From Candidatus Latescibacterota bacterium (GTDB taxonomy: Bacteria > Latescibacterota > UBA2968): a DNA stretch of 64,000 nucleotides. Positions within the stretch are counted from its first letter, which is position 1; each line of letters opens with the position of its first letter. The stretch lies in NCBI GenBank assembly GCA_965222605.1, contig OZ244960.1, positions 3,936,001 through 4,000,000 of the forward strand. Direction: 5' to 3'. The notes beneath the pieces are model-generated. The model ran no database searches. It was not told where the DNA came from and saw only the letters and a program-made list of their open reading frames with translations. The translations under genes were made by a program, and so were the position numbers. This document shows positions 8,317-62,074 of the stretch, one piece after another.

Positions 8317-8317
8317 T

Positions 8318-9187: not shown

Positions 9188-9197
9188 AAAAATAAAA

Positions 9198-9227: not shown

Positions 9228-9252
9228 AGATGGATACTCTTGCAGAAACAGG

Positions 9253-9513: not shown

Positions 9514-9545
9514 GATGTGCTACTCCTTACTATGGGGTATAATAA

Positions 9546-9734: not shown

Positions 9735-9839
9735 ATAATCACCTCCCTTTCATCTTGATATTTTAAATTATCGCCATATATTCTATGACATTTTGTATCA
9801 ATTTTTATGACGATAGAAATATAAAGGGTTTAGATCGCT

Positions 9840-38384: not shown

Positions 38385-38482
38385 GTAGGGGACGGTCCCC
38401 GTGCCGTCTCGTGTGTCATCGCGGCATGATTTTAGCCGCGATCCAGTGTTTTTGCCTGTCCATCCGTGTCCATCTGTGGTTG
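38385..38482. repeat. Nest of three different short palindromic/repeat elements
   Basis: GTAGGGGACGGTCCCCGTGCCGTC (GTAG REP), TGTCATCGCGGCATGATTTTAGCCGCGATCCAG (palindrome), and tandem GTCCATCCGT/GTCCATCTGT. Confidence 0.55.
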
Positions 38483-38487
38483 CTTTT

Positions 38488-44065: not shown

Positions 44066-44156
44066 ACTCTGCAAAACCTTGTCCCCGGACCACATCACAC
44101 AATTTTTGCGCGTTAATCGCATATCTTTGGGTTGCCAGTACAGGGTTTTGCAGAGT
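44066..44156 (+). promoter_or_regulatory. Long stem-loop between the precursor genes and the maturase
   Basis: ACTCTGCAAAACCTTGT (44066-82) pairs with ACAGGGTTTTGCAGAGT (44140-56), one G.U pair. Confidence 0.6.
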
Positions 44157-44194
44157 TCTTTGTCGTCTTTCGTCTTATTGAGAGGGGACTTACC

Positions 44195-45631
44195 ATGATG
44201 TGTATCCACAAATGCGAAATGCATCTTTTTCAAATAGAAGAGCAAAAACAGCCTATTGTCTATCAGGTTGAGACGGGTCTGTTCTATGAATTGGATACCC
44301 TTTTTCAGGCGATTTTAGCGTGTTGCGAGGGGTTGTCTGTTTCGCAGGTTGTTCAGGTGCTGGCTGATCAATACGAGGCAGAGGAAATTGTCGAGGCTAT
44401 TGAGGAATTGGCTCAGGTGGGTTTGATTTCGGATGGTGCTCTACCTGTGGTAGCCAATGTGCCGACAACAGAAGGGGTGGCAGCCTGTGGGGCATCGCAG
44501 ACAGATCGTTTGCAGGTGTCCTTGCACGTTTCCCATACGTGCAATATTCAGTGTGCTTATTGCTTTGCCCATGGCGGGGATTACGGCGGTAAGGCGATGC
44601 TGATGCAATTAGATGTTGCCGAGCAAGCCATACGCTGGATTGTCGCCGAAGCGCAGGTGTTCGGACGGTGCCAGATTGATTTTTTTGGCGGGGAGCCGCT
44701 TTTGAATTTTCCATTGCTGAGCGAGCTTGTCCCGTTTGCCAGGTCCCTGGGAGCGCGGTTGGGTGTGCAGGTTGGTTTTGGCATTGTGACCAATGGCACG
44801 TTGTTGACCGACGAGATGAAGCAGTTTTTGGTTGATGAAAATTTTCAAATTAAGGTCAGCCTGGATGGTGGGCGTAAAACGCAGGATCGCATTCGCAAGT
44901 TTCACAATGGTTCTGGTACTTATGATGTTGTGGCAAAAAATGTACAGAAACTGACGGATGAGGTACCTGAGCGCGTGTTTTTGCAGGCTGTTATGACAGC
45001 TTATGATATGGATGAGGATCAGATTGCCAATGAGTTGCGTTCCTTGGGTACTGATAACGCGCTTGTTGGTCCGGCGGTTGTTTCACCGGATGCGCCTTAT
45101 GCTATTCGAGAAGAACATATACCCGCGTTGAAACAACAGATTTACAAGCGGAGTAGGCGTGCGCTCAAAGCCATTTTAAGTGGTGAAAAGGGTGAAGATG
45201 AAGAGTTTGATCCGAGGATTCAAAAACTTTTGACGCGCAAAAAATCCTGTCACGGGTGTCTCGGTGGCAAGCAGTATTTGGCGATTGCAGCAGATGGGTC
45301 GATTTATTTTTGCTCGAGTTTAGCCGATGCGCCCGAGTTTAAGATGGGTGATGTGTTTGCGGGTATTGACCGCGAAAAACAGCATCATTTTGATGTGGAG
45401 TTCAATGTGAATAATCGCCCTGAGTGCAAAACGTGCTGGGCACGCAACTTATGTGGTGGCGGATGTCTTTGGGAGGCACGGACAACAACGGATGATCCAA
45501 TGTCTCCGAACCCGGTTTATTGTGAGCAGACGCGCTATCGCTATGAATTGGCGATGGAAATGTGTATGGAAATAGCAGAGACGGATGAGTCTTTGTTGCA
45601 GCGACGTTATGATCTGGAAGTGGCCTCATAA
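44195..45631 (+). CDS. Radical SAM/SPASM peptide maturase with an N-terminal RRE-like domain (ranthipeptide-synthase-like)
   Basis: CNIQCAYC, FFGGEPLLN, VTNGTLL, VSLDG; SPASM CHGC..GSIYFC..CKTCWARNLCGGGC..C; N-terminus ends in a winged-helix-like AIEELAQVGLI. Confidence 0.88.
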   Translation: MMCIHKCEMHLFQIEEQKQPIVYQVETGLFYELDTLFQAILACCEGLSVSQVVQVLADQYEAEEIVEAIEELAQVGLISDGALPVVANVPTTEGVAACGASQTDRLQVSLHVSHTCNIQCAYCFAHGGDYGGKAMLMQLDVAEQAIRWIVAEAQVFGRCQIDFFGGEPLLNFPLLSELVPFARSLGARLGVQVGFGIVTNGTLLTDEMKQFLVDENFQIKVSLDGGRKTQDRIRKFHNGSGTYDVVAKNVQKLTDEVPERVFLQAVMTAYDMDEDQIANELRSLGTDNALVGPAVVSPDAPYAIREEHIPALKQQIYKRSRRALKAILSGEKGEDEEFDPRIQKLLTRKKSCHGCLGGKQYLAIAADGSIYFCSSLADAPEFKMGDVFAGIDREKQHHFDVEFNVNNRPECKTCWARNLCGGGCLWEARTTTDDPMSPNPVYCEQTRYRYELAMEMCMEIAETDESLLQRRYDLEVAS

Positions 45632-45651: not shown

Positions 45652-45885
45652 ATGGCCTGTAGAATTGGCTTGACGATAGATCCCGACAGCCGGAGGCGAT
45701 ATTGGCGATCCAGGTATCGTTCCTTCAGAAACTGGAGGACTGTGGGGCATTATAATTCTAAGAGGCAAGCCCAGCAAGAAGTGACTCGACTCGCTAAAAT
45801 TTGGGGGTGTGAAGCTCCTCCTGATGGCGTAGGACCAGAACAGGCCTCCTGGTATGTGTATGTTTTTGCACATGACGGCTATTAA
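45652..45885 (+). CDS. Small basic protein, minimal GIY-YIG-like motif
   Basis: RIGLT.DP.SRR, AQQE..L, C-terminal YVY; in operon position. Confidence 0.5.
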   Translation: MACRIGLTIDPDSRRRYWRSRYRSFRNWRTVGHYNSKRQAQQEVTRLAKIWGCEAPPDGVGPEQASWYVYVFAHDGY

Positions 45886-45902
45886 ATCAAGAGAAGGAAA
45901 TA

Positions 45903-46796
45903 ATGCATAAAATTTCAGACCTCAAAATGCCGGATCGGCTTAATCTGGACACTGGCTGGAGCATTGGTGAGACAGCGTTTGAGAGAATTACAACGGCGCT
46001 TCTTGAGATGTCTCCGGTAGAAAGAATTCTCGAATTTGGAAGTGGTCCGAGTTCTATCCGTCTGGCAATGGCGTTTTCTGAAGCGCAAGTTTTATCTGTG
46101 GAAGGCGATTGGCGAAATTTTGCAGAGACTACGGATTTGATGCATAAGTTTTTGGATAAACGCAATCTATCGATCAAATATCGTCCGATTACGCTTGAAT
46201 CTTATGGAGATGCCAGCTTTTTGACTTATGAAGATGGGATGTTTTGGGAGGAAGAGATGGATTGTGTGATTATTGATGGTCCGCCTGTCTATAGCTTGCG
46301 AGGTCGAGAGGCGTGTCTCTACCAGGTTTATGATCAGATCAAGATTGGTGGTCTGGTCATTCTGGACGATTTCAGAAGGTCTTATGAGAAGCAAATTGTC
46401 GAGAACTGGCTGTCCGTCTATCCCGGCAGTTTTGCAGTGGAAATTATCCGCGAAGACCACCATCTGGCCGTGCTGCGTAAGATCAAATCCGTGACACCAT
46501 GTTGGGATGCGTCTTCCAGACTATTAGATGTTCAGTCTGTCAGTAAAACTCGCTCCCGAATAACAAAGGCATTATCGCATGTTGATGATGTGTATTTGAG
46601 AGCGCTAACTAAAGCTACTAACAGTGAAACAGACCTGATTGGTCTGTTCAATACCCTTCGGAATATCTATGGGGTGACGCCTGAGTTTATCCAGGAGTTC
46701 ACGAGCCGAGATTCTACACTCACACCAGATGCTCTAAAAAGAAAACAGAATGCCTGTTATATGACAATCGTCAATACGTTTTTTCGGAACTGTTAA
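45903..46796 (+). CDS. Class I SAM-dependent methyltransferase
   Basis: ILEFGSGPSS, LSVE.D, VIIDGPP, GGLVILDD. Confidence 0.85.
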   Translation: MHKISDLKMPDRLNLDTGWSIGETAFERITTALLEMSPVERILEFGSGPSSIRLAMAFSEAQVLSVEGDWRNFAETTDLMHKFLDKRNLSIKYRPITLESYGDASFLTYEDGMFWEEEMDCVIIDGPPVYSLRGREACLYQVYDQIKIGGLVILDDFRRSYEKQIVENWLSVYPGSFAVEIIREDHHLAVLRKIKSVTPCWDASSRLLDVQSVSKTRSRITKALSHVDDVYLRALTKATNSETDLIGLFNTLRNIYGVTPEFIQEFTSRDSTLTPDALKRKQNACYMTIVNTFFRNC

Positions 46797-46831
46797 TAGA
46801 ACTTGGACAGAAATCACTTGACTAATTTGGG

Positions 46832-47833
46832 ATGCTACCTTTGAAGATTCTCTTTGATATTCTCCACATCGCACATCTTAATTTTTTCAAGTCAGCCATC
46901 GAATCGTTGAAGGCTAGACACGATGTGTCGGCTGTTGTCAGGCAAAGAGGTAACCTTGTTGCCATAGCGGAGTCAGACCTCCCTTGTTCCTTTCGTGTAA
47001 TGGGCGCTCATAGAACTGGTGTTAGAAAGATGGTTGGGGTATGGGAAAGGGTCGTTGATCTCAAGAAGATAGTATGCGAAATGGAGACAGACGTCTTGGC
47101 GAGTTGTGGATTCTATTCGGGCATAGTTTCGCGATTTTGTCGCGTACGGTCTGTGATTTTTTATGACGACTTCGAATACAAGCTAAATTTTTGGCCGTGT
47201 CTTTTATTTTCTCATCAACTTGTCTTACCTGAAGCACTCGGAGTGGAAGGCAGAAACATCATTCAATACAACGGGTTCAAAGAGTTGGCTTACTTGAACC
47301 GATTTGTCCCGCAACCGAAGATTTTAGGTGAGTATGGAGTTCAGCCAGGAGAGTATGTTTTCGTCAGGTATGTTGCACCTATCAGCATGAACTATCGACG
47401 CTTGGGTCAGGAAGAAGTTACGCAAGCGACTAATGCGATTTTAAATACTGGAATGATCATCATAGCCTCCCTTGAACGGGGAATAAATCTTGAGTTCGAA
47501 CACCCCAATTTCCGAAAGGTTGTTGAACCTTGTCCCAGTATCCATTCCCTAATTTACTATTCAGCCCTGGTGGTAACGACTGGAGATACTGTTGCAAGGG
47601 AAGGGGCTCTCTTAGGGGTACCTACTATCTATCTTGGAAGAAGGGAAATGCGCATAAACCGAGAATTAGTCGAGAGTGGACAATTAATAATCCCTGATCC
47701 TGGCGAGGTGACTAAAGAAATATTGGCAAATCTCAGCAATAGAGTTTCGCGAGTCAAACCTGAAAATAAAAAGTGGGAAGACACAACGGAGGTCATAGTC
47801 TCTTGTATTGAGCAACAGAAATTCATCAAGTAG
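46832..47833 (+). CDS. DUF354-like GT-B fold protein
   Basis: ILFDI.H.AHLNFFK, FYDD.E, YNGFKELAYL..F.P, GDTVAREGALLGVPTIY. Confidence 0.8.
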   Translation: MLPLKILFDILHIAHLNFFKSAIESLKARHDVSAVVRQRGNLVAIAESDLPCSFRVMGAHRTGVRKMVGVWERVVDLKKIVCEMETDVLASCGFYSGIVSRFCRVRSVIFYDDFEYKLNFWPCLLFSHQLVLPEALGVEGRNIIQYNGFKELAYLNRFVPQPKILGEYGVQPGEYVFVRYVAPISMNYRRLGQEEVTQATNAILNTGMIIIASLERGINLEFEHPNFRKVVEPCPSIHSLIYYSALVVTTGDTVAREGALLGVPTIYLGRREMRINRELVESGQLIIPDPGEVTKEILANLSNRVSRVKPENKKWEDTTEVIVSCIEQQKFIK

Positions 47834-47973
47834 TTCTGTCCGATATCAGATGATATTGGGTTGTCCGGCAAATGGTAATTCAATCTGGTAAATATAGATT
47901 TGATGCTATTAAAAATATTGGGAATCAATCAGGATTAGGGTCAGTGTAGATATATGGAAGGTAAGGGTGCAGG

Positions 47974-49344
47974 ATGAAAATTTGTGTAGTTGGTTTGGGC
48001 CATGTTGGCACTGTGAACATTGCCTACTTGCTTGAACGAGGTCATATCGTCACAGGCTTGGATGTCTCCCAGGAAAGAATCCGCCATCTTTTTGCCGGTG
48101 AACCTGAACCAGAACCCCGCGTAAGCGACCTGCTAAGTTCAGCACTTAGAAGTGGGAGGCTCCAGCTTTCGACTGACTACTTCAAAGCTGTCGAGGAGGC
48201 GAGTGTAGCGATCATCTGTGTAGGTACGCCGCAAGGGGAGAAAGACGGAATACCAAATCTGAGTTTTCTTTATCAGGCCGTAACGTCACTGGTTGAGATA
48301 GTCAACAAGAAAAAAGGCACGTTCGACGTAGTTCTGCGCAGCACTGTTCCGCCCGGGACGACGCGTAATATCGTCTCTGGAGCCTTCGGGAATTTTGGCA
48401 ATGTCTGGTATTACCCGGAGTTCTTGAGAGAAGGAAGCGCAATTGAGGACATGAATGATCCCCCGATACGGATCGTTGGTGCTCCAAAGACTGGTTATTG
48501 TCAGCGCGTGTTAGATATTTACGGTGAGACTGGGCCAGTGTACATTACCGAATACGAAATAGCTGAAATGGTGAAGTATGTATGCAATGCTTTTCATGCC
48601 ATGAAGGTTACTTTCACGAATGAGATATCGAATGTTTGCAGATATCTCGGGATAGACAGCAATAGAGTAATGGAGGTAGTGTGCTCAGACAACAAGCTCA
48701 ATATGTCAAAAGCCTACATGAGGCCGGGATTCGCATTCGGAGGATCCTGTCTCCCGAAGGATCTTACAGCACTCCTGCGGCTATCGAACGGACGACAAGA
48801 ACCCGAATTGCCTCTGCTGACCAATATCATTGTCAGTAATGATCTTCATATCAGATCCACGGTAAGGAGGGTAAGGTCACTTGCCGTTCGAGGAACATTG
48901 GGTATGTTGGGTTTGAGTTTTAAGCCCAATACAGGCGACTTGAGGGATAGTCCGTTCGTAAAACTCGGAAACATGCTCATCTCAGAAGGGTACCAGGTAA
49001 TCGCATATGACCCTTCAGTAGAGTTAGGTCTCCTGGATGTAGGGCAGACTTATATTCAAAGCGATGCCAGAAAGATCTGGCAGGGACAATTGGCCAAATC
49101 CCTCAATTCGCTATGTGAGTGTTCTCTACTTTTGATCGCACATCCCATTTCTTCATTTCATACACCGATTTTACCCATCTTGAAGGGCAAGCATGTTCTT
49201 GATTTGTGCAACGATCCTTTGCGAGAGCAAATCGCTGCTATTGCTGACTATGAAGGTGTGGGCTGGGAATCCCGTTCAGGATGTGTTCGGAATGTAAGCT
49301 TGGCAAAGGCTGAAGAAGCGTTAAAGAACACGTCATATTCATAA
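47974..49344 (+). CDS. UDP-glucose/GDP-mannose 6-dehydrogenase family
   Basis: VVGLGHVG, ICVGTP, RSTVPPGTT, PEFLREG, KY.CNAFHA.K, PGFAFGGSCLPKD, GLSFKPNT.DLR.SP. Confidence 0.95.
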   Translation: MKICVVGLGHVGTVNIAYLLERGHIVTGLDVSQERIRHLFAGEPEPEPRVSDLLSSALRSGRLQLSTDYFKAVEEASVAIICVGTPQGEKDGIPNLSFLYQAVTSLVEIVNKKKGTFDVVLRSTVPPGTTRNIVSGAFGNFGNVWYYPEFLREGSAIEDMNDPPIRIVGAPKTGYCQRVLDIYGETGPVYITEYEIAEMVKYVCNAFHAMKVTFTNEISNVCRYLGIDSNRVMEVVCSDNKLNMSKAYMRPGFAFGGSCLPKDLTALLRLSNGRQEPELPLLTNIIVSNDLHIRSTVRRVRSLAVRGTLGMLGLSFKPNTGDLRDSPFVKLGNMLISEGYQVIAYDPSVELGLLDVGQTYIQSDARKIWQGQLAKSLNSLCECSLLLIAHPISSFHTPILPILKGKHVLDLCNDPLREQIAAIADYEGVGWESRSGCVRNVSLAKAEEALKNTSYS

Positions 49345-49426
49345 AAAAGCCGCCGACAGACCCTGGCAAGTCGAGTGTCGGCGGCAGACTGCAGTTCAAA
49401 GCTCAAGCATTTGGGAATGTGAGCTT
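49343..49426 (-). ncRNA. Candidate structured small RNA / modular repeat, copy 1
   Basis: Minus-strand TTGACA (49462-49457)-N18-TATCTT (49438-49433), then hairpin AAGCTCA..TGAGCTT, then GC stem GCCGCCGACA..TGTCGGCGGC with a T-tract; repeated at 56886 and 59897. Confidence 0.55.
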
Positions 49427-49488: not shown

Positions 49489-49782
49489 ATGGCAAAAAAC
49501 ACAATAACAATACCTGAGATTGAGAATCAGATTCAAGATTTGGTCCTGAAGGCATTAGATCATGAAGTCACATCTGATAATATAGATTGGAGCGATCTTC
49601 TTTTGATTTCTATACTTGATTCTGTCTCTATCATGGCCCTGGTGACAGGCTTAGAGGATACATTTGACGTGGTCGTAGAGGACGAAGAACTCACAGAAGA
49701 AATGCTAACTTCGACACGTTCGGTAGCGAAGTATATATATGAAAAATTAGCCACTGATGCACATTCGCTCGCTCTCGAATAG
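49489..49782 (+). CDS. Acyl carrier protein
   Basis: Acidic, about 97 aa, ILDSVSIMALV..LEDTFDVVVEDEEL with the phosphopantetheine Ser in the DS motif. Confidence 0.85.
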   Translation: MAKNTITIPEIENQIQDLVLKALDHEVTSDNIDWSDLLLISILDSVSIMALVTGLEDTFDVVVEDEELTEEMLTSTRSVAKYIYEKLATDAHSLALE

Positions 49783-49819
49783 ATCAACGCCAGAAACTAA
49801 CACTGTGAAAGGTTTTTTG

Positions 49820-51724
49820 ATGGAGCATTTTTTTTCTAATTTGACAGGTACAGGTACCCGGGTAGGCGTCATTGATAGCGGTTTTAATACGGGTAAAAAA
49901 AACGTGCATGTGTTGAATGGTACCAGTTTCTGTAATGGCGATGCCCAACCAGATTCAAATTACAAAGATATGATCGGCCACGGAACAGCATGTATTGGCG
50001 TCATCCACACTAAAGTTCCCAATGCAGAATTTTTGCCTGTCAAAATTTTTGAGTCAGAGTTGATAACGACAATGGACATTTTGTGCAAGGCGATTTACTG
50101 GTGTGTTAAACATCAATGTCACATTATCAATTTGAGTTTAGGCACTCTCGATGAGAGCAATAGCGATGTTTTGAAGGAGGCCTGTGATTTTGCATACAAA
50201 CACCATACGTTCATTGTTGCTGCGACATCAAATGATGGACAACCGAGTATTCCCGCGTCTTTTCCCAATGTCTTTGGCGTAGCAGGAGGAAAAGTAGCTG
50301 GAAAATTTGATTACTTTTATGACCCACACGAAAAAATACAGTTTGTCGCACGGGGTGATCGTCAACGTCTGAATTGGCTGGAAGGCAAACAGATATTTAT
50401 GGGTGGATCGAGCTTTGCGGCTCCGCATATTTCTGGCTTGATTGCTCTGATAATAGAGAAATATGGTGGTATCACGCTCAACGATCTGACAGAAATTTTG
50501 AAGCTGCACTCCTTAAGCCAATGTCCCAAGCTGGTAGATAGTAGCACTTATGCGATGAGCGGGATGCCCAGATCTCGCTCAGACGTTTCTATCCGAGACC
50601 TAAATAAGGCAAATACGCCAGGCTGGATAGAAGAGGCTGTTGTTTTTCCATATAACAAAGAAATGCATGGGTTGGTGCGGTTTCGGGAGTTATTGCCATT
50701 TAGGATTACAAGAGTAGTTGACGTTGTTGGAAAAAGAACCATAGGTAAAGATTGTGGGGAGGTTATTGGGGGAGCCGAATCTAATTTGATCATACAACAA
50801 AATTTGGAAGACTGTCTGCAATACGGCGATACGCTCGTTTTGGGTTATTTGGATGAAATTAGCCGGATTAAGAAACGCGATGTGTTACAAGAATCTCTAA
50901 AATTGGCATTGAAGCATAACAAGAACGTTTACAGTCTCAGCCCCATTGCAAATAATCAATACGAAAGCATAAGTAAAGCCTTTAAAGAAAAACATCTGCA
51001 TTGTGCAGCACCAACCATAGATTTTGCAACTTATGAGGCTTTGATCAAAACTTATGATTGGAGAAACAGAAGCCAGAAACCTATCGTGGGCATATTTGGA
51101 ACAGGACCGCAACAAGGCAAGTTCACTGCTCAATTGGCACTGAGAAAACAATTACAGAAAATTGGCTATAAAGTTGGTCAATTGGGCACAGAACATCAAT
51201 CAGCGTTATTTGATTTCGATTTTACATTTCCAAATGGATATGATGGACATCGGAGTATCCAAATCCCCATGGATTTGCACATTCCACTTCTAAATTCTGC
51301 TATGGTCGGTATCGAACAATCAGACCCGGATATTATCGTTGTTGGTGGTCAGTCCGGTATCATACCTCATAGCTTTTACGAAAAATCTCAGAGTTATACT
51401 TTGCCCTCATTGATCTTACTCTTTGGAACTGTTCCCGATGCATATATCCTGCTCGTTAATTCTATCGACGAACCTGAATTTATACAGGAAAATATCCGGG
51501 TGTTAGAGAGCTTCGGGAAGGGCAAAGTGATTCTCCTTGTTTTCAGTGATAAGAAAAAAATTGTTAATGACACTGTTAATACAGTCGTCAACCAGCCGCT
51601 TTTTAGAGAGGAAATTTGTCAAACGATATTGAGTTTGGAATCAATGCATCGCATTCCAGCTACTGAGATAATTAGCGCAGAAGGACGAAAAAAGATGGCT
51701 GATATTGTTATTGATTTTTTCTGA
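49820..51724 (+). CDS. Subtilisin-like S8 peptidase fused to a DUF1611-like P-loop domain
   Basis: Triad VIDSG / GHGTAC / GSSFAAPH; C-terminal VGIFGTGPQQGKFTAQL, LGTE, DIIVVGGQSG, PDAYIL; no signal peptide seen. Confidence 0.82.
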   Translation: MEHFFSNLTGTGTRVGVIDSGFNTGKKNVHVLNGTSFCNGDAQPDSNYKDMIGHGTACIGVIHTKVPNAEFLPVKIFESELITTMDILCKAIYWCVKHQCHIINLSLGTLDESNSDVLKEACDFAYKHHTFIVAATSNDGQPSIPASFPNVFGVAGGKVAGKFDYFYDPHEKIQFVARGDRQRLNWLEGKQIFMGGSSFAAPHISGLIALIIEKYGGITLNDLTEILKLHSLSQCPKLVDSSTYAMSGMPRSRSDVSIRDLNKANTPGWIEEAVVFPYNKEMHGLVRFRELLPFRITRVVDVVGKRTIGKDCGEVIGGAESNLIIQQNLEDCLQYGDTLVLGYLDEISRIKKRDVLQESLKLALKHNKNVYSLSPIANNQYESISKAFKEKHLHCAAPTIDFATYEALIKTYDWRNRSQKPIVGIFGTGPQQGKFTAQLALRKQLQKIGYKVGQLGTEHQSALFDFDFTFPNGYDGHRSIQIPMDLHIPLLNSAMVGIEQSDPDIIVVGGQSGIIPHSFYEKSQSYTLPSLILLFGTVPDAYILLVNSIDEPEFIQENIRVLESFGKGKVILLVFSDKKKIVNDTVNTVVNQPLFREEICQTILSLESMHRIPATEIISAEGRKKMADIVIDFF

Positions 51725-51755
51725 GATCAAGACCTCAATGATAGGGAAAAAGTAA

Positions 51756-52478
51756 ATGCCAGAAATTCGGAAAATGTCGCTGATTTTAAATATCCTGCTG
51801 TCTGTTTTTATTTTGGTTGCGTTATTCGGGATATGGAAATTGAGAAATACGAACGCTCGTCATTGGGAAGAAATTAGAGAGCTTCGAAAAGTGAACGCAG
51901 ATTATAAGGAGCATATAAACGTCTCTACCTATGCCTCCAATTATCAAGGGCAAGAATTTCCGAAGTTGCAATTGGAGAATATAAATGGCGATTGGATTTC
52001 AACGGACTTTTCTAAAACAGGAAAAGGACTGGTTCTGGTCTTCAAGCCACAAGACTGTCAGCCCTGTTTAATCACGCAGATAAAGTTACTGGAGCATGTG
52101 TACCAAAATCAGGATCCCTCAAAACGCTTTCCAATTTATGCTTTTGCCAATGCTTCTGCAGAAGTGTTGAAAAAATTTAAAAAGAGTTTTGATCTCCATT
52201 ATGAATTGTTTCCGGATACAGAGAACATGTTATTCCAGGATAGAGTACTTACCCATCGTACCCCTGCTATCTTTGTTGTGAACAAAAAAAATATCATAAC
52301 GCATTGTCATTTTCCCTCAAAGGACCGCCCACAAAATACAGTCCTCTTTTTTGGTGTGATTCAAAGACATTTGCCTTTGCAAAAACCACTTCTGAACGAT
52401 CATCTTAAAGGGGTGACCTATTCGCAAATCATTGCCAAAGATTTTGATACTACTCCTTTATCTACATTTATTTATTGA
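51756..52478 (+). CDS. Membrane-anchored thioredoxin-fold (redoxin) protein
   Basis: N-terminal TM helix, FPKLQL, CQPC (CxxC), TPAIFVVN. Confidence 0.7.
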   Translation: MPEIRKMSLILNILLSVFILVALFGIWKLRNTNARHWEEIRELRKVNADYKEHINVSTYASNYQGQEFPKLQLENINGDWISTDFSKTGKGLVLVFKPQDCQPCLITQIKLLEHVYQNQDPSKRFPIYAFANASAEVLKKFKKSFDLHYELFPDTENMLFQDRVLTHRTPAIFVVNKKNIITHCHFPSKDRPQNTVLFFGVIQRHLPLQKPLLNDHLKGVTYSQIIAKDFDTTPLSTFIY

Positions 52479-52537
52479 TATTTATGAATAATATCTAGCA
52501 TGAAAAACATAGTAAAATATGTTGATTGTCAATACCA

Positions 52538-52592
52538 GAATGGTTTTACTTGAGCCTACCAAGTAAGGTATTCTTATGTGCATGCACATTTT
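52538..52592 (+). repeat. Leader motif shared with 57048-57109
   Basis: GAATGGTTTTACT..GAG..AGTAAGGT..TCTTATG..GCACA.TTT; TTACTTG/CAAGTAA hairpin. Confidence 0.6.
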
Positions 52593-52623
52593 GGCTTGAC
52601 TAAAAAGGAAAGGAGGTGATATT

Positions 52624-52848
52624 ATGAAAACTTTGACCAAACCTGTGAAGTCTCGGCTGTCTTCTCCGCGTATTTATGGATATGAAGATAATGGGGGTAA
52701 ATGGAAAGTCGATGGAACATCAATAGTTGAGTATGGGGATCCGGTTGAGACAACGTGGTACTACACTTACTTGGTGTGCGAGTCTGCGACCCAACCCTTC
52801 TGCACCGTAGGCGATTCAGAGACTAAAGCACGTAAAGTAGATCATTGA
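52624..52848 (+). CDS. Putative precursor peptide 2 (74 aa)
   Basis: Very strong AAAGGAGGTG RBS; basic leader MKTLTKPVK..RIYGY followed by a core with a C-x7-C pair. Confidence 0.7.
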   Translation: MKTLTKPVKSRLSSPRIYGYEDNGGKWKVDGTSIVEYGDPVETTWYYTYLVCESATQPFCTVGDSETKARKVDH

Positions 52849-53090: not shown

Positions 53091-55586
53091 ATGTTTTTAA
53101 GTTATTTCCGAACATGGTTTCGCAATATCCTCAAGTATAGAACCTATTCAGCCATTAACCTGCTGGGTTTGGGGATAGGAATTGCGTGCTGTTATCTGTG
53201 CGTGCTTTACCTCCTGTATGATTGGAGCTTTGATAGGTTTCACAAAGACCATCATCGCATATACGGCATTGCAGGAAAGGTAAAACACAGTAACGGAATA
53301 ATGGGGAACGGAATAATGGGGATCCCGTTGGCGGGTACATGGGCAGAAATAGCCAGATTTCCTGTTGTATTATCTTCCATGATTTCTGCCGAAGTTCCTG
53401 AGATTGAGACCACGACCCGTGTAAAGTGTGTCCTCGGGACAGCGACCTGGCAAGTAGGTACGCACAAAGAATTTTTGCGACCTATCCAAGAGGTTTTGTT
53501 CGTTGATAGGAGTTTTGGGGCGATGTTTTCCTTTCCTCTTATTCACGGCACGTTCTTCTCGCGACCAGGGCAAGTCGTGATCACACGTAGATTCGCTCAG
53601 ATACTTACCAACGATATTGACAGTTTGATTGGCAAAGTGTTATGGATGCGCGTTGCTTCTCGCAGGTTCGTGAAAGATCTGAAACCCGTATTAGCCCCTG
53701 TTGAAATAGGGGGCATCGTGGAAACCCCGCCCCGCAATTCGAGCCTGAATTTCGAGATTCTTTTGCCATTGAGTATATCCGCAACCTTTCTAAAAAAGAA
53801 AGAAGGCAGGTGGGATTGGCAATTTAGGTGTACACATTATATCCGTTTGACAGATGAAGCAGATGTGGAGGCAGTAGAGAGAAAACTCACGGCGTTCATG
53901 CAGAAGCAGTCCTCTTTCAACTCGCTATGGGATTTAGAGACCTTTCAGGCTAAATTGCAACCCATCACAGAATTGCACCATTATAGAGGTCCGTTTATTG
54001 ATGGTGTGTTCCGCTACACGAATCCCTTATATGGATATATTCTCGGCGGTATCAGTGTATTGGTTCTGGTTATCGCGTGTTTGAATTACGTGCTCCTCTA
54101 TGTGGGGCGGTTCAACTCGCGTACCAAAGAATTGGGCATAAGGCAAATCTTTGGAGCGAGCCGCAGGCACCTCAGGTACCAACTCCTGGTCGAATGCTTT
54201 GGATACAGTCTATTAGCGTGCATCTTAGGCTTGGCAGTCGCAGAGTTGGCATCAAGTCCTCTTGAAGGTGTTTTACGGATTCCTTTCACGTCTTCGGTAG
54301 ATCCCATTCAGACCGCGATTGTTCTCCTAACACTGGCATGTCTGATAGGTCTGGTCACAGCCTTTTACCCAGCAGCCTTTATGTCGTCTGTGTCTGCCCT
54401 CAGCGTTTTGAGCAAAACAGCAAAGGCCGTCGGTTCTGGACTGTTCTTAAAGATATTGATGGCTATCCAGTCCGGTGTGACTTTAGTCTTTGTGTTTTGC
54501 ACGATCATTATCTTCGAACAGACTTTTTTTGTCATCACGGCAGAGCCGGGTTTTGAACCAGCGAATTTGGTCAGGATCAATACCAGTGGGTTGACAGAAA
54601 ATGAGATCAACCGTCTGCAAGCGTCCTTATCTGCATCTCCTCTCGTGACATCCTGTGTGCGGACGAACTTGCCCTTCGGATGGTCAAATGCAATCTTGAT
54701 GAAAGACAGCAGTGATAAACTCATTGATAACATAACCTATTATCAGGTGAAGGGGCCTTTTCTCGAGACCGTTGGGTTGCAACTCGTAAAGGGGAGAACC
54801 TTGCATCCCAACCCCATGCCCGGCGATGTGATCGTGAATGAAGCTTTCCAAAAGCACCTAACATCGCCACAGCCTCTTGGACAGGTGATCACGCAGGCGG
54901 ATACAAAGTTTAGAAGACCCGTGTTTAGCAGCGATGTGAGTGGTCGCATAGTCGGTGTGGTTAAGAATTTTCACGTTAGAAACTTGCGCCACACCGTCCC
55001 GCCGACCATCATCACGATTGCCCCGGATGATGCAACAACTAAGCGACAAGACCTAGAAATATTGATTCGGATTCGAGAAGGTAGTGCGGAAACCTTTGGT
55101 GCGTATCTCAAGGGACTGTGGCAAGACCTCAAAAAGGAGCATCACCTGACGTTTTCCTTTGTAGAAGATGACAGGCGACATTTTTATGCTAAAGAGATCA
55201 ATTGGAGCAAGATCGTCTCTGGCGCGGCCCTGTGCGCTGTCTTCATCGCGTCAATGGGTGCTATGGGCATGATCTCGCTATCCGTGGCTCGCAGAAGAAA
55301 GGAAATAGCCATCCGAAGGGTCATGGGTGCCGTGCCGTCTAAAATAGCCAGTGAGATTGTGTTGAACTACGCGCTGCCCGGGTTTATAGCCGCCGTCATC
55401 GCGCTGCCGCTGTCTTATTTATTTATCCAAGAATGGCTCTCGATATTTGCCTACCGCTTTCAATTTGGGGTTGGGACTATTTTGGTGACGCTCTTATTGG
55501 GTATTCTGCTTCCACTGATATGTGGTTTCGTACACGCGCTAAAGGTGGCTTCTGCAAATCCAATAGATGCCCTTCGAGAGGACTGA
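53091..55586 (+). CDS. MacB/FtsX-like ABC transporter permease (divergent)
   Basis: INLLGLGIG, ACLNY, RTKELGIR..FGAS, RRKEIAIRRVMGA, NPIDALRED. Confidence 0.88.
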   Translation: MFLSYFRTWFRNILKYRTYSAINLLGLGIGIACCYLCVLYLLYDWSFDRFHKDHHRIYGIAGKVKHSNGIMGNGIMGIPLAGTWAEIARFPVVLSSMISAEVPEIETTTRVKCVLGTATWQVGTHKEFLRPIQEVLFVDRSFGAMFSFPLIHGTFFSRPGQVVITRRFAQILTNDIDSLIGKVLWMRVASRRFVKDLKPVLAPVEIGGIVETPPRNSSLNFEILLPLSISATFLKKKEGRWDWQFRCTHYIRLTDEADVEAVERKLTAFMQKQSSFNSLWDLETFQAKLQPITELHHYRGPFIDGVFRYTNPLYGYILGGISVLVLVIACLNYVLLYVGRFNSRTKELGIRQIFGASRRHLRYQLLVECFGYSLLACILGLAVAELASSPLEGVLRIPFTSSVDPIQTAIVLLTLACLIGLVTAFYPAAFMSSVSALSVLSKTAKAVGSGLFLKILMAIQSGVTLVFVFCTIIIFEQTFFVITAEPGFEPANLVRINTSGLTENEINRLQASLSASPLVTSCVRTNLPFGWSNAILMKDSSDKLIDNITYYQVKGPFLETVGLQLVKGRTLHPNPMPGDVIVNEAFQKHLTSPQPLGQVITQADTKFRRPVFSSDVSGRIVGVVKNFHVRNLRHTVPPTIITIAPDDATTKRQDLEILIRIREGSAETFGAYLKGLWQDLKKEHHLTFSFVEDDRRHFYAKEINWSKIVSGAALCAVFIASMGAMGMISLSVARRRKEIAIRRVMGAVPSKIASEIVLNYALPGFIAAVIALPLSYLFIQEWLSIFAYRFQFGVGTILVTLLLGILLPLICGFVHALKVASANPIDALRED

Positions 55587-55715: not shown

Positions 55716-56807
55716 ATGAATCGCAAAAAGTTATTGGTTTCCGTGAGATGGCTGACACTCCTCCTTTTGATCTGTGGAAGTTGCCAAAAAAGTACTGTTG
55801 AAAACCAGCAAGATGGGGTCGCTCTCAAGGTGCAAGCACAAGGTGCCCAACTTTCATTGATTGATGCCATTACCCTTGAACGGTCAGAGGCAAGGCCAGC
55901 TCTCGGACGTGTCCGTTCCATTACTGTTTTGGAGAACTATATCATTATTGTAGATGCCATGAGAGAAAGTGTCGAAGTTTTTGACAAGGAGGGCAGCTAT
56001 AAGTGGTCTATTGGTAGTCGCGGGGATGGAGAAGGTCAGTACAAGAGCCCGAGCGAGCCAACAATTATCCCCAATACCGACCAAATGCTGATCTATGATG
56101 GGGGGCAGGTGCTTATCTTCTCGATTCAAGGAGAATTTTTAGGGCAGGTAAAGCTGCCAGAGAGACGCTTTATTAATCGCATGGCGGTTTCTGATGAGCA
56201 CAATCTCATTCATACTTATCTTGACAAAAACCAAAACGGTATGCTTTGTGTCACCTCCCTTGAAACTGGTGAAGACCTCGCCAAGTTCAAAGTTAGCGAG
56301 TCTCAATACGAACACTTATTTTTTGGTTTGCAGAGTTTCCAAGGGCTTGCTTATGACGAGATACAGAGAATGATATATTTTGCCTTGCCCTGGGAAGAGA
56401 AGGTTATGCGAATTGATTTGGCAACACAGGAATTTTTGACCCCCATAGTCATAAATCATCCCAAATTTGTCAGCCTCAAATTAGATGAAATAGATGATAG
56501 CAAAGATATTAGAGAATTATCCCAACACAGGTTCAGCAGATTGAACAGCATGTATCTCTTGTCTTCGAGCGATATTTTGCTCAATTACCAGTTCTGGGAT
56601 TCGTCAATGAGTACCGCGCTTATACTTTTATCAGGCTTGGATATGCAGCCATCGGCGCAAGAAGTGAAAAATGAATTGGGGTACAATATTTTTACTTGTT
56701 ATGGAAAATCTATATATATGTATTCGTCTTCCACTGATGGCGAAGATACAAATGGGAGAATTCGTGTCTATCGTCTGACGGAACCTCAAGAAGCCCCTAC
56801 CGGATAG
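55716..56807 (+). CDS. 6-bladed beta-propeller (NHL/TolB-like) lipoprotein
   Basis: CGSC lipobox, VFDKEG.Y..SIGSRGDGEGQY..P, IFS..GEFLG. Confidence 0.78.
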   Translation: MNRKKLLVSVRWLTLLLLICGSCQKSTVENQQDGVALKVQAQGAQLSLIDAITLERSEARPALGRVRSITVLENYIIIVDAMRESVEVFDKEGSYKWSIGSRGDGEGQYKSPSEPTIIPNTDQMLIYDGGQVLIFSIQGEFLGQVKLPERRFINRMAVSDEHNLIHTYLDKNQNGMLCVTSLETGEDLAKFKVSESQYEHLFFGLQSFQGLAYDEIQRMIYFALPWEEKVMRIDLATQEFLTPIVINHPKFVSLKLDEIDDSKDIRELSQHRFSRLNSMYLLSSSDILLNYQFWDSSMSTALILLSGLDMQPSAQEVKNELGYNIFTCYGKSIYMYSSSTDGEDTNGRIRVYRLTEPQEAPTG

Positions 56808-56885
56808 TGGTGAGAGTCAGGCCGTGTTCGAGTGTCTCTTTATCACAAAGTTAAAATTGAAGTGGCAAAAGTGTTAATATAAATA

Positions 56886-57041
56886 GCCGCTGATATACCT
56901 TGGCAAGTCGAGTGTCGGCGGTAAGAACAGTGTACAACCGCTGGCTGGCAATCCCTGATAGATTCGGGCGGTGTACAACTGCGCACGCGTAGCACAACGT
57001 CAGTATAGCAGTTCAAAGCTCAAGCATTTGGGAATGTGAGC
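56886..57041. repeat. Modular structured repeat, copy 2 (about 85-nt insert)
   Basis: GCCGCTGATATACCTTGGCAAGTCGAGTGTCGGCGG ... GCAGTTCAAAGCTCAAGCATTTGGGAATGTGAGC. Confidence 0.8.
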
Positions 57042-57133
57042 ATGAGAGAATGGTTTTACTTTTACTGGAGTCCATCGAGTAAGGTGCGTCTTATGCATAC
57101 GCACACTTTAAGTTATTTACATTACGGGTGAAT

Positions 57134-58906
57134 ATGAAAAAAAAAATTAACAAATTCATCTCAGCAACTTTTTATATCTCTAAGAATAGACATGTCTTTT
57201 ATCATTTTTTAAAATTTCTGAAACCTTATTGGGTACAGCAAAGCGTTGTTTTCGTTCTCATGCTCTTGGGGACTGTTAGCTCGCTGGCCTTTCCTTATAT
57301 CATGAAAATTATTATTGATGACGTGTTTCCAAACAAAGACTATGAATTATTTATATTTATTTTGCTTCTGCTCTTGGGCATTACAGTAGGTAATATCATT
57401 ATTGGTTTTTGTTCAAACTATTTATTTTCTTGGATAAACAATCGCATTATGCTGGATATAAGGAGCCATCTTTTTGACCACTTAATCCAGTTGCCATTGA
57501 GCTTTTATGATCGCAATAAATCTGGGGATATTGTTTATAGAATGAGCAACGAAGTGGATAGGATACAGTCGTTTATCACTTCGAGTGCTTTGAATCTTAC
57601 GCATAGCTTGTTGACACTCATAGGGCTTACTGTGGTTCTCTGCTGGTTGAACTGGCAACTCTTCTTGGCTTCTATTATTGTGATACCCTTTCTGGTACTC
57701 AATATTCGCTATTTCCAGCCTAAAATAAGAGATATTACAGAACGAGGACGAAAGAAAGGCTCTGAAGTTATGAGCTATTTGATTGAGCGATTTGAGACTG
57801 TCCAATTGATTCAGGTCTATAATGCCTATAATTATGAAAACAATAGATTGTGGTCGCAGCTAAATGATCTTCTGGATATCAATATGCAAAATGTAACCTA
57901 TTCTGGCGTGATGAGATCGATTTCGAGATTTTTCACATCCCTGACACCTGCGATCATTTTGGGCTGGGGAGGCCACAAAGTCATGTTGGGCGTCATAAGC
58001 TTGGGGGCATTAGTCGCTTTTTTGCAATACCTGTCGCGCCTTTTTGAACCATTTAGAAATCTCAACCATCTTTATGTAGAACTTATCCGTGTATCTGTTT
58101 CAATGAAGCGGGTATTCGAGTTTCTCGAGATTGATATTCAGGAATGGTCCGACTCGTCTGTCACCCGTCCTTTTTCTTTTGAAAAGGAGATAGCGTTTAC
58201 CGACCTCAATTTTGGATATAACGGACAACCCGTTTTGCAGGACTTCAGCTTGAGACTTGAGAAAGGAAAAAAATATGCTCTGGTAGGGTCAAGCGGTTGT
58301 GGCAAGAGTTCATTGGTAAATTTGCTGTGTCGTTTTTATGAATCGAATACAGGTGCGATTACTATTGATCACATACCGATTACCCATATCAAACTGTATG
58401 ATCTGAGAGAGCATATTGGTCTGGTAACTCAGGAAAATCAAGTTTTTCATGATACAATCTGGGACAATATCCGATACAGCAAGCCGAACAGTACGCCTGA
58501 AGAGGTCCATAGAGCGATCAGGATAGCTGGTTTGGATGGATTTATTGAGAAGGCTGAAGATGGTGCGCTTACGCTTGTCGGTGATCGCGGGAACACACTT
58601 TCGGCTGGTCAAAAGCAGCGTATTGCCATTGCGCGTGCAATTTTGAGAGACTCGGATATTTTGATCCTGGATGAAGCTACGTCGGCACTGGATTCTGAAA
58701 GCGAAGGTGAAATTATAGCAAATTTACAGGATCTATATGAAGATAAAACGATGATTGTGATTAGCCACAGACTCAGCACGATCCAGCAGGTAGATGAGAT
58801 TATCTGTTTGGATGAGGGGAGAGTTGTGGAGCAAGGAGCACATGAAGAGTTGTTGGAGAAGAAGGGACATTATTGGCGTCTTTTTCGCAAGCAACTTATC
58901 GCATAG
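57134..58906 (+). CDS. ABC exporter, fused permease/ATPase, no C39 domain
   Basis: 6-TM ABC membrane domain, GSSGCGKS, LSAGQKQR, ILDEATSALD, ISHRLST. Confidence 0.95.
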   Translation: MKKKINKFISATFYISKNRHVFYHFLKFLKPYWVQQSVVFVLMLLGTVSSLAFPYIMKIIIDDVFPNKDYELFIFILLLLLGITVGNIIIGFCSNYLFSWINNRIMLDIRSHLFDHLIQLPLSFYDRNKSGDIVYRMSNEVDRIQSFITSSALNLTHSLLTLIGLTVVLCWLNWQLFLASIIVIPFLVLNIRYFQPKIRDITERGRKKGSEVMSYLIERFETVQLIQVYNAYNYENNRLWSQLNDLLDINMQNVTYSGVMRSISRFFTSLTPAIILGWGGHKVMLGVISLGALVAFLQYLSRLFEPFRNLNHLYVELIRVSVSMKRVFEFLEIDIQEWSDSSVTRPFSFEKEIAFTDLNFGYNGQPVLQDFSLRLEKGKKYALVGSSGCGKSSLVNLLCRFYESNTGAITIDHIPITHIKLYDLREHIGLVTQENQVFHDTIWDNIRYSKPNSTPEEVHRAIRIAGLDGFIEKAEDGALTLVGDRGNTLSAGQKQRIAIARAILRDSDILILDEATSALDSESEGEIIANLQDLYEDKTMIVISHRLSTIQQVDEIICLDEGRVVEQGAHEELLEKKGHYWRLFRKQLIA

Positions 58907-58909: not shown

Positions 58910-59419
58910 ATGGAACTGGTGAGTGTAGAATTTCGCAATCCTGACATAAAATTAGTTCTTCTGCGTGCATTGGTTATTCAAATTTTGGGAATAGGCGCAG
59001 GATTGATTTATACTGTTATTTTTAGTGAACAGCTTTTGTTCGGCGAGGTTGAAACCTTTGAAAAACAAGATGATATAACGTATGTCTCTTTAGAGGCACT
59101 TCAAAATGTAATTCAATCGAAATCAAAAATACTACTCATTGATGGACGATCTGAATCAGCTTATCACGAAGGCCATATTCCAGGGGCTGTGAACGTACCG
59201 TATATTCAGCGTGATTATTTTTTTAAAAAACTTTTGGCTGATATTGCCCGCGAGACACCAATAATTGTCTATTGTTCCGGAAAGAATTGTAATACCAGTG
59301 TCAAATTGGCGAGGTCTCTGTCAGGGGAATTTGGATTTATACATGTTCGAGTTTTTAAGGGAGGATGGGAGGAATGGGTAAAGGGTGAAAATCCGATTCA
59401 AACGAGTTTTGACAGATGA
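58910..59419 (+). CDS. Membrane-anchored rhodanese-like domain protein
   Basis: IDGRS..Y.EGHIPGAVNVP, VYCSG..C, FKGGWEEW. Confidence 0.88.
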   Translation: MELVSVEFRNPDIKLVLLRALVIQILGIGAGLIYTVIFSEQLLFGEVETFEKQDDITYVSLEALQNVIQSKSKILLIDGRSESAYHEGHIPGAVNVPYIQRDYFFKKLLADIARETPIIVYCSGKNCNTSVKLARSLSGEFGFIHVRVFKGGWEEWVKGENPIQTSFDR

Positions 59420-59883
59420 TTATACCTTCTAAATTAGCATGGATAGGAACCGTGATCCGGATATTTCTGGGGGTTATTCTCGGATGGGCTGGGGTTGTAA
59501 AAATCCGTAATCCTGAAGCATTTATTAAAATTGTGAGAGCCTACAATTTGCTACCTGAGGAATTGGGCGTGCTATGGGGAATTTTCTTGCCCTGGATTGA
59601 GCTTGTGACAGGTTTATTTTTAATTTCAGGTTTGTGGCACAAGAGTGCTGTGCTCAGTAGCTCTGGTCTTTTTTTAGCATTTGCAGCAGCAGTCGGCATT
59701 AATATTCTCCGCGGTGCAGATATCGCCTGTGGTTGTTTTGGGTTCAATGACACCAATTTGTATGTTGTGTTGTTCCAGGCCCTGGTCTTCTTGCTTTGCT
59801 GTTATTTTTTGTTTTTTCTGAAATCTACACCTTATTCTATGGACCATTGTCTTTTTACTTCTCAAAGAGGTGGACTTTCGTAA
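59416..59883 (+). CDS. MauE/DoxX family redox-associated membrane protein
   Basis: RIFLG....AG..KI, LPWIEL..G, RG.DIACGCFG. Confidence 0.88.
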   Translation: MIIPSKLAWIGTVIRIFLGVILGWAGVVKIRNPEAFIKIVRAYNLLPEELGVLWGIFLPWIELVTGLFLISGLWHKSAVLSSSGLFLAFAAAVGINILRGADIACGCFGFNDTNLYVVLFQALVFLLCCYFLFFLKSTPYSMDHCLFTSQRGGLS

Positions 59884-62073: not shown

Positions 62074-62074
62074 A

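Follow-up and report, generated by a model that had tools for sequence, protein, structure and literature searches.

A peptide-maturation cassette of Firmicutes, composed of a small precursor (TIGR04065), the radical S-adenosylmethionine (SAM) enzyme CcpM (TIGR04068), a TIGR04066 protein, a TIGR04069 protein, a subtilase and an ATP-binding cassette (ABC) exporter, is known in silico as the CLI_3235/CcpM cassette, and the sections devoted to it in reports on Roseburia (PMC4573289) and Paenibacillus (PMC10731318) present no biochemistry; the relevant section of the Paenibacillus paper guesses that the TIGR04066 protein is an immunity factor. The TIGR04066 protein and its partner, which resembles an acyl carrier protein (ACP), have so far been annotated as a 'peptide maturation system', with their chemistry unassigned. 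We have analysed a 64-kb window, by which we mean the whole stretch of DNA studied, from contig OZ244960.1 of Candidatus Latescibacterota bacterium (assembly GCA_965222605.1), in which a subtilisin-like (S8) protease domain and a TIGR04066-like DUF1611 module are fused in one protein, encoded beside an ACP-like gene and upstream of a small Cys-containing peptide (coordinates are collected in Table 1). The reading that we favour, and favour tentatively, draws on sequence, structural models and analogy: the fusion may be a cytoplasmic bifunctional maturation enzyme that would cap the new N-terminus of small ribosomal peptides in a reaction dependent on a carrier thioester.

The gene set of the window is similar to that of the Firmicute cassette. 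Common to both are an S8 protease, a TIGR04066-type module, an ACP-like protein, an ABC exporter and a small Cys-rich peptide. On the C. pasteurianum plasmid pCLOPA01 (L083 in our numbering of loci, 5257-9967) the order is a CLI_3235 precursor, CcpM, TIGR04066, a 98-aa match to TIGR04069 and an S8 peptidase as a protein of its own; an ABC transporter is encoded close by. The precursor beside CcpM matches TIGR04065 (29.9 bits vs 26), and its leader follows the scheme of the window type, ending in I-E-A-Y ahead of a Cys-rich core. Yet the 2 systems also differ. Protease and TIGR04066 module are separate proteins in the Firmicute cassette and a single polypeptide in the window; the window's clade keeps the module motifs and the carrier Ser, both of which the Clostridium examples have lost; a radical SAM enzyme is optional in the fused clade, unlike in the CLI_3235/CcpM cassette, and the clade's precursors fail TIGR04065; and its hosts, in contrast to the Firmicute cassette, are mainly Latescibacterota, Gemmatimonadota, KSB1 and Bacteroidota/Ignavibacteriota. 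Judged by sequence, the window carries a fused, motif-retaining variant of a cassette already defined in silico. A preliminary description of this DNA had proposed an unusual route to a lipopeptide; the set of parts is not unprecedented, being a fused form of TIGR04066, TIGR04069 and subtilase. Literature searches, which most subscription journals lay outside, returned genome mining and nothing functional for TIGR04066/TIGR04068/TIGR04069 and the CLI_3235 'peptide maturation system'. By title and abstract, nothing relevant was found for ranthipeptide with ACP and leader peptidase or for multinuclear non-heme iron oxidase (MNIO) with carrier and S8 protease, and in a 2023 review of leader proteases for peptides that are synthesized ribosomally and modified post-translationally (RiPPs) the terms 'acyl carrier' and 'ranthipeptide' are absent.

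A second relative is QhpE, which, according to the portion of the source that treats it, removes the QhpC leader in the cytoplasm, ahead of ABC export (PMC7876137). QhpE, which operates with the radical SAM enzyme QhpD and the ABC exporter QhpF, is likewise a cytoplasmic S8 protease without a pro-domain; unlike the fusion, it has no DUF1611 module and no carrier partner, and no qhp structural genes were seen near the fusion. Peptidase_S8 (PF00082) is matched in the fusion at E 1.3e-23 (84 bits vs a gathering score of 21.8), and the best curated match of the S8 domain is the NCBIfam QhpE model (NF049966; 144.2 bits, E 3.7e-42, below the cut-off of 165). The domain thus resembles QhpE, by analogy, in its working, yet falls outside the QhpE family assignment. 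The triad Asp19, His54 and Ser198 and the oxyanion Asn138, aligned to subtilisin BPN' and in subtilisin order, are invariant among 27 aligned family members, in agreement with the preliminary description of an intact triad fused to a P-loop (GTGPQQGKFT) domain. NCBI records label the fused proteins merely 'S8 family serine peptidase'. The first ATG of the open reading frame (ORF), at 49757, would give 655 aa; relatives begin at Met22 of this product and a Shine-Dalgarno-like GAAAGG site lies upstream of it, and the gene is therefore probably the 634-aa frame that starts at 49820, which does not overlap the ACP-like gene.

The last ~370 aa of the fusion have, according to our model, the DUF1611/DgcN fold, as had been supposed of this domain from the letters of the DNA. 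DUF1611_C (PF07755) is matched at E 6.9e-9 (35.7-35.8 bits vs a gathering score of 25); the N-domain family PF17396 has no match in the window copy, scores 25 bits vs 22.6 in the genome's second copy, and is present in the precomputed Pfam assignments of many relatives. The AlphaFold2 model of the module, built from a 50-sequence alignment (pLDDT 89.2, pTM 0.89), gave 3 solved DUF1611 proteins as its top Foldseek matches: 2g0t (E 4e-16), 2obn (1e-12) and DgcN 7xrj (9e-12). VIA-align superposed the model on 2g0t with Z 30.1 (rmsd 2.9 A, 314 residues), on 2obn with Z 29.3 (2.8 A, 314 residues) and on DgcN with Z 25.4 (3.9 A, 307 residues, 18% identity), the matches spanning model residues 1-368, and profile comparison with 2g0t gave E 1.4e-5. 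P-loop enzymes such as MinD, BioD, CobB and CTP synthetase make up the next fold tier, at Z ~13-14 by VIA-align, and the fold and profile matches also include Mur ligases and cDPG synthetase. Kinship to DgcN, to which the preliminary description had pointed, stands for the fold and is remote in sequence: the NCBIfam DgcN model (NF041892, cut-off 480 bits) did not match the window protein at E<=0.01 and reached 12.1 bits (E 0.07) in one relative, L024. DgcN shares the two-domain arrangement (307 of 331 residues aligned) and a P-loop of the GT-x4-GK-x-T type; unlike the fusion, it stands on its own, belongs to amino-acid catabolism and is associated with neither protease nor carrier nor peptide. 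It is a D-glutamate N-acetyltransferase that uses acetyl-CoA as donor.

The best curated match of the module by sequence is TIGR04066, 'peptide maturation system protein' (122.3 bits, E 2.2e-35, model positions 2-271 of 361), at a score below the family cut-off of 200 bits. Stand-alone proteins of 374-419 aa share 40-43% identity with the module over its full length; JGI calls one of them TIGR04066, and the nearest ESM Atlas cluster also bears that name. These sequence comparisons place the module nearest to TIGR04066 but in a distinct, fused clade. About 50 module positions are invariant in this clade, among sequences just 37-44% identical to that of the window; the Lys of the P-loop belongs to them, as do the motifs NKEMH, GTEH, QSG and NSxD. 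The Walker A sequence is deviant (GK-F-T, with no Ser/Thr directly after Lys). Our searches, which most subscription journals again lay outside, found unrelated work only on DUF1611 and nothing on PF07755/COG3367/PF17396.

The fused form is not confined to this window. A protein-collection search gave 268 clusters at E<=1e-3, with PF00082 and PF07755 together in 116 of the best 120 and PF17396 also in many of them, and in a one-per-species genome scan a relative proved to be encoded in 262 stretches. We studied the best 80 of these 262 genomic matches (77 kept), a choice that favours close relatives; 59 of the 77 are labelled Latescibacterota or Latescibacteria, and the others come from Gemmatimonadota, KSB1, Bacteroidota/Ignavibacteriota (including the isolate Rosettibacter primus), Poribacteria and other groups. 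Firmicute fused forms occur in Senegalia and on megaplasmids of Bacillus albus and B. mycoides. The family extends over at least six phylum-level groups, often with several copies per genome, and the window's own genome (6.34 Mb) has two. The fusion, its adjacent carrier and the leader type described below recur over dozens of loci, and this is not chance.

The ACP-like ORF adjoins the fusion directly upstream, where the preliminary description had placed it. Its match to PP-binding (PF00550) scores 18.7 bits vs a cut-off of 20.8, and scanned homologues reach 31.5-46.1 bits (E 1e-7 to 1e-12); TIGR04069, 'acyl carrier-related' (cut-off 70 bits), is unmatched by the window carrier and gives 13-20 bits in relatives. 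Of 76 loci, 65 have a carrier homologue, which in 55 lies no more than 400 bp from the fusion (48 downstream, 7 upstream) and in 10 at a distance of 2-9 kb; it was not found in the remaining 11, several of which are cut contigs. The Ser for phosphopantetheine attachment stands where helix 2 begins; all 63 of the 63 homologues aligned have it, and the residue before it is D (41), N (20) or S (2). In complex prediction, the DUF1611 module with the carrier scored 0.39 vs 0.00 for the best control, a mark reached by 58 of 80 solved complexes and by 2 of 110 mismatched pairs, with just 7 of the 80 solved complexes, plus both passing mismatches, reaching it at scores of 0.60 or less; contact agreement among runs was at least 93% and partner pLDDT at least 76. 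Read with the conserved pairing, this prediction lends mild support to direct contact between module and carrier.

Carrier and module also appear to decay together. In 11 of 11 Clostridium-type TIGR04069 proteins (P0185, P0187-P0197; L083) the Ser column is Ala or Pro, and the one Clostridium TIGR04066 protein aligned has kept the P-loop Lys and lost the P-loop Gly and Thr, NKEMH, TEH, QSG and NSxD. Most or all module motifs are retained in the stand-alone proteins P0130, P0127 and P0128 and in the Rosettibacter and Bacillus fusions (the Bacillus fusion keeps P-loop, EH and QSG, with the other two motifs altered), and the Bacillus and Rosettibacter carriers retain Ser. This joint loss, a single case resting on 11 carrier sequences and one module sequence, argues that an intact module active site acts with the phosphopantetheine arm of the carrier. 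The same Clostridium pair can be read differently, since it has been kept though Ser and motifs are gone: module and ACP-like protein might be a non-catalytic unit for leader recognition or gating, in the place that a RiPP recognition element (RRE) would take, such that the S8 domain would cut finished peptides only or the unit would hand peptides to the exporter. No RRE/PqqD domain was found in the fusion protein by Pfam scan, and the module accompanies unrelated core-modifying enzymes or none that is visible, both of which suit such a role. We rank it third and consider it unlikely nevertheless, because the ~50 invariant module residues, including the P-loop Lys and the polar motifs at 37-44% identity, and the carrier Ser in 63 of 63 homologues are what one would expect to see if the enzyme were active and its carrier in the holo form.

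The 74-aa peptide encoded downstream of the fusion (precursor 2) is, by its sequence features, a genuine precursor: we observed a conserved leader, a hypervariable core and a gene beside maturation and export genes. It had been described as following the fusion; it does lie downstream, but not directly next, the gene of a redoxin-like protein standing between. The leader, MKTLTKPVKSRLSSPRIYGY, is basic, 20 residues long and ends in IYGY, with Glu next as the first residue of a 54-aa core that contains 2 Cys. Homologues in the closest loci have a near-identical 20-residue leader and unrelated cores, the conserved part stopping exactly at IYGY, the end that the preliminary description had given it. 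Six precursors of this type matched no Pfam or NCBIfam family at E<=1, TIGR04065 included.

The leaders have the form M-x(1-9)-[LIVM]-x-K-[PK...]-x(6-17)-[IV]-x-[AG]-Y. A short leader pattern was matched by 47 ORFs on the strand of the fusion in 32 of 79 sources, vs 2 on the opposite strand. A tighter pattern gave 44 ORFs, and removal by eye of 6 as unrelated (L007 2846, L017 17240, L019 17164, L019 4106, L023 54, L025 2160) left 38 peptides from 26 sources. Their leaders are 19-28 residues long, end in [IV]-x-[AG]-Y and are free of Cys in 34 of 38; the cores are hypervariable, 35-65 residues, with 2-6 Cys in every one. At P4, 21 peptides have V, 16 have I and 1 has T, and at P2, 28 have A and 10 have G, frequencies that the search pattern has partly set. 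Classical subtilisin subsites prefer a hydrophobic P4, a small P2 and an aromatic P1, and we placed the cut after Tyr because the leader matches this preference; removal of the leader at that point by the S8 domain is well supported by inference, from sequence and by analogy. Directly after Tyr, 15 peptides have E and 10 have S, while H and A occur in 3 each, N and Q in 2 each, and L, T and D in 1 each. Exposure of an N-terminal Glu, as the preliminary description proposed, would thus hold for the window; Glu at the new N-terminus is, by this comparison, a trait of the window's subfamily and not of the whole system. Similarly, the Y-x(0-2)-E motif of the same description occurs in 27 of 38 precursors, with Glu directly after Tyr only in the 15. 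A Glu within 6 residues of Tyr is present in 38 of 38, its position (+1, +3 or +5) being fixed per subfamily. We set aside a lasso-like lactam from N-terminus to Glu, because this conserved Glu stands just 1-5 residues from the presumed new N-terminus.

The conserved Glu does enter one further reading, in which the P-loop module, following the cut at Tyr or simultaneously with it, would activate the Glu after Tyr and tether the ribosomal peptide as a thioester on the carrier's phosphopantetheine arm, from which transferases, BtrH-like or of another kind, would pass it to an amine or sugar. We regard this as improbable, and know of no described precedent for such a hybrid of ribosomal peptide and thiotemplate.

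Precursors may also occur in tandem, up to four genes, as in Gemmatimonadota-type loci with three or four each (L057 3187-4329, L058 3406-4406, L075 2821-4358). The cores encoded there are hydrophobic, rich in Gly and Ala, and contain 2-4 Cys, a composition that makes them look membrane-active; those of the window's subfamily are acidic.

The window encodes another small peptide, precursor 1, of an unrelated type and a short way upstream of the radical SAM gene; it contains 2 Cys and, internally, an E-G-G motif, and its C-terminus is poly-Asp. L007 (5087-5263) has kept it along with the radical SAM gene, and it is likely to be the radical SAM enzyme's own substrate. One might suppose that the window fusion trims this peptide, serving the radical SAM pathway as QhpE serves QhpD, and that the 74-aa peptide belongs solely to the propeller and FtsX genes. 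QhpE is indeed the best model for the S8 domain and a QhpD-type model the second best for the radical SAM enzyme, precursor 1 and the radical SAM gene are kept together in L007, and every precursor-2-type copy in L007 is followed by propeller and FtsX genes. Such a division of labour seems to us very unlikely all the same. A homologue of the window's radical SAM enzyme is found in just 6 of 76 loci (plus one small SPASM enzyme), peptides with KP...AY leaders accompany the fusion in 26-32 sources across phyla, and precursor 1 is without [IV]-x-[AG]-Y. On the Bacillus albus plasmid NZ_CP040345.1 (L084, 2180-9085) the fusion is encoded with a phosphopantetheine-binding protein, two 44-aa precursors whose leaders end in V-T-L-Y followed by M-G-E, a BufB/HvfB-like MNIO (DUF692) and a weak ApyI-like partner; as fusion and carrier here accompany an MNIO, the fusion module is not tied to radical SAM chemistry.

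We determined recurrent neighbours in 69 loci, within 9 kb of the fusion, through our own ORF calling and BLAST clustering. The families were ABC exporters (45 loci), HlyD-like proteins (31), redoxins (26), beta-propellers (20), rhodaneses (15), CPBP/Rce1-like proteases (15), MauE/DoxX proteins (10), GNATs (9) and various glycosyltransferases and sugar enzymes; among the 76 loci, 61 have a homologue of the window's type of ABC exporter, and the redoxin-like protein of the window has one in 26 loci. Proteins similar to BtrH_N/DUF4872 occur in 34 of the 69 loci (24 + 10, in two families that hhalign joined with a probability of 81.6%), mostly just after the carrier gene; members of one of these (family 5) match BtrH_N weakly, at E ~1e-5 to 1e-6, below the cut-off. 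In the window and its eight or so closest loci, hmmsearch found no BtrH-like gene at E<=10. In butirosin synthesis, BtrH passes an ACP-bound acyl group to an amine. A carrier (BtrI) with an ACP-dependent acyltransferase (BtrH) is thus comparable to the adjacency of carrier and BtrH_N-like protein in the 34 loci, though not to the window.

These neighbours bear on a different role for the DUF1611 module, in which it would load the carrier thiol with an acid, through an ATP-dependent acyl phosphate as in BioD, CobB and Mur-type ligases or through acyl-CoA transfer, and a separate enzyme, BtrH-like or other, would transfer the acyl group to peptide or sugar. We rank this second, as a distinct possibility short of our preference, because of the ATP-using fold relatives (the tier at Z ~13-14 holds P-loop enzymes that activate carboxylates or carbamates with ATP, and ATPases) and the BtrH-like neighbours in half of the loci, which include the second copy of the same genome; also, no other loader is visible in the minimal cassette. 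The deviant Walker A, the N-acetyltransferase name of the only characterised DUF1611 enzyme and the lack of a BtrH-like gene in the window and its closest loci argue the other way.

Capping of the new N-terminus is ranked first because the only characterised DUF1611 enzyme is an N-acetyltransferase, as the title of entry 7xrj and the name of NF041892 have it, and because the fusion sets the module at the newly made amine. The QhpE-like S8 domain would first cut behind the invariant Tyr, which would occupy P1, with Ile/Val at P4 and Ala/Gly at P2; in the window the cut would fall after Tyr20 of precursor 2 and expose Glu21, a step suggested by conservation and by known subtilisin subsite preferences. 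The DUF1611/TIGR04066-type module, with the phosphopantetheine arm of the carrier, would then carry out a thioester-dependent acyl transfer coupled to cleavage; fold, fusion and gene pairing point to this step, and its likeliest outcome, by analogy with the acetyl-CoA-dependent N-acetyltransferase DgcN, would be a capped N-terminus. From the gene context, the ABC and FtsX exporters would carry the processed peptide out of the cytoplasm, and there the redoxin, rhodanese and MauE/DoxX proteins would deal with its 2-6 Cys. The enzymes that modify the core would be accessories open to exchange, namely a radical SAM enzyme in the window, an MNIO in Bacillus and glycosyl- or acyltransferases elsewhere.

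N-acylation from acyl-ACP by the fused domain, as the preliminary description proposed, is plausible by analogy. A lipopeptide product, which it also proposed, we reject as unsupported: neither the window nor the families of recurrent neighbours showed an acyl-ACP synthetase, a ketosynthase or any other gene for acyl building, long-chain loading or fatty-acid synthesis, and a short acyl group would be likelier than a lipid. N-acylated RiPPs are made by GNATs, as in the N-acetylation of microviridin or in lipolanthines, goadvionins and selidamides, which are acylated from acyl-ACP or acyl-CoA. The logic is shared, in that the leader comes off and the peptide amine is then acylated, sometimes from a carrier; GNAT clusters, however, contain acyl-building genes, and in our case, where none was seen, it is a DUF1611 module, in one polypeptide with the protease, that is the candidate.

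Several points weigh against N-terminal capping by the module. We infer both the cleavage site and the acyl transfer, and no carrier-loading enzyme was seen in the window. With BtrH_N/DUF4872-like proteins or GNATs beside the pair at the frequencies given above (34 and 9 of 69 loci), the DUF1611 module may not be the transferase. The residue after Tyr varies, so that by sequence there is no fixed acceptor residue. The similarity to DgcN is remote, and the P-loop fold tier is one of ATP- or GTP-using enzymes, of which BioD, CobB, CTP synthetase and MinD are examples. The complex score, taken by itself, amounts to weak support. Survival of the Clostridium pair without Ser and motifs suggests that the partnership can be non-catalytic.

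If the DUF1611 module is a carrier-dependent tailoring enzyme, it would be a new enzyme class in RiPP biosynthesis; in a milder, less radical form of the peptide-tethering proposal, it would be a new class of carrier-dependent RiPP N-acyltransferase fused to a leader peptidase. If the cut is as proposed, the S8 domain would be a leader peptidase that recognises a short and simple motif, [IV]-x-[AG]-Y, and it could be put to use in traceless tag removal. The fused form is widespread, including in cultured hosts (Rosettibacter, Senegalia, Bacillus); it has retained invariants of the kind seen in enzymes, and in its carrier a true Ser, combines with differing core-modifying enzymes, and travels with a recognisable precursor family that was not modelled before. 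It also offers a handle on the peptide chemistry of sponge-associated Latescibacterota.

Table 1. Positions of the features discussed, counted from the first nucleotide of the window; the last row gives the other fusion locus of the same genome.
Feature	Position	Strand	Remark
Protein of 1669 aa: Ser/Thr kinase, long middle region, sigma-54 activator (NifA/NorR-like) C-terminus	38401-43410	+	
Precursor peptide 1, 53 aa	43729-43890	+	different leader type, acidic C-terminus; next to radical SAM gene
Radical SAM/SPASM maturase	44132-45631	+	PqqD-like N-terminus (SCIFF/QhpD/Nif11 type)
Stretch between radical SAM gene and ACP	45652-49344	+	four genes
ACP-like carrier protein, 97 aa	49489-49782	+	Ser45 in LDSVS motif
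S8 protease-DUF1611 (TIGR04066-like) fusion, 634 aa	49820-51724	+	ORF open from 49757
S8 (QhpE-like) protease domain	49820-50570	+	without signal peptide or pro-domain
Asp19	49874-49876	+	S8 domain
His54	49979-49981	+	S8 domain
Asn138	50231-50233	+	S8 domain
Ser198	50411-50413	+	S8 domain
DUF1611 two-domain module	50615-51721	+	Rossmann-like N domain, P-loop C domain
NKEMH	50654-50668	+	family-invariant motif
P-loop GTGPQQGKFT	51098-51127	+	family-invariant motif
GTEH	51185-51196	+	family-invariant motif
QSG	51344-51358	+	family-invariant motif
NSxD	51455-51469	+	family-invariant motif
Membrane-anchored AhpC/TSA-redoxin-like protein, 240 aa	51756-52478	+	CQPC motif
Precursor peptide 2, 74 aa	52624-52848	+	leader 52624-52683, core 52684-52845
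FtsX/MacB-type duplicated permease	53091-55586	+	
DUF5128 six-bladed beta-propeller	55716-56807	+	homologue in 20 loci
ABC exporter, membrane and ATPase domains	57128-58906	+	without peptidase domain
Rhodanese-domain protein	58910-59419	+	
MauE/DoxX membrane protein	59416-59883	+	
GT4-type glycosyltransferase, polyprenyl glycosylphosphotransferase, 370-aa ORF	60116-63187	+	downstream of cluster
Second fusion locus of the same genome (L082)	C1:2326000-2345900	-	fusion of 646 aa, with Pfam DUF1611_N

The cluster genes of the window, from the radical SAM gene through the MauE/DoxX gene, are co-directional. The start of the radical SAM/SPASM gene is probably near 44195. Between it and the ACP gene lie a 77-aa ORF, which occurs in L007 too, a 297-aa ORF that gives a weak signal of methyltransferase type, and the genes of DUF354 and an NDP-sugar dehydrogenase; the 77-aa ORF and precursors 1 and 2 matched no family in Pfam or NCBIfam. 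The three genes at the far end of Table 1 (GT4-type and following) may constitute an exopolysaccharide locus of their own or may belong to the cluster and serve in sugar tailoring. At the second locus of the genome, L082, the genes are HlyD, ABC exporter, several small zinc-ribbon or transmembrane ORFs, fusion, carrier and a 351-aa BtrH_N-like protein, and a 149-aa ORF has a leader-like N-terminus (MQKLVK...VEAYE).

The gene of the kinase/sigma-54 activator lies directly upstream of the cluster, and a homologue has the same place in L007 (691-4773); its product may be a regulator of the cluster. Also, a short GC-rich palindromic element recurs between genes, in the window at 49340-49400 and 56874-56978 and at several intergenic sites in L001-L009. 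The copy at 49350-49386 reads gccgccgaca...tgtcggcggc, and the minus-strand translation of the element gives a recurring pseudo-ORF motif, PPTLDLPGSVGG. The element looks like a repeat family of the repetitive extragenic palindrome (REP) or terminator type.

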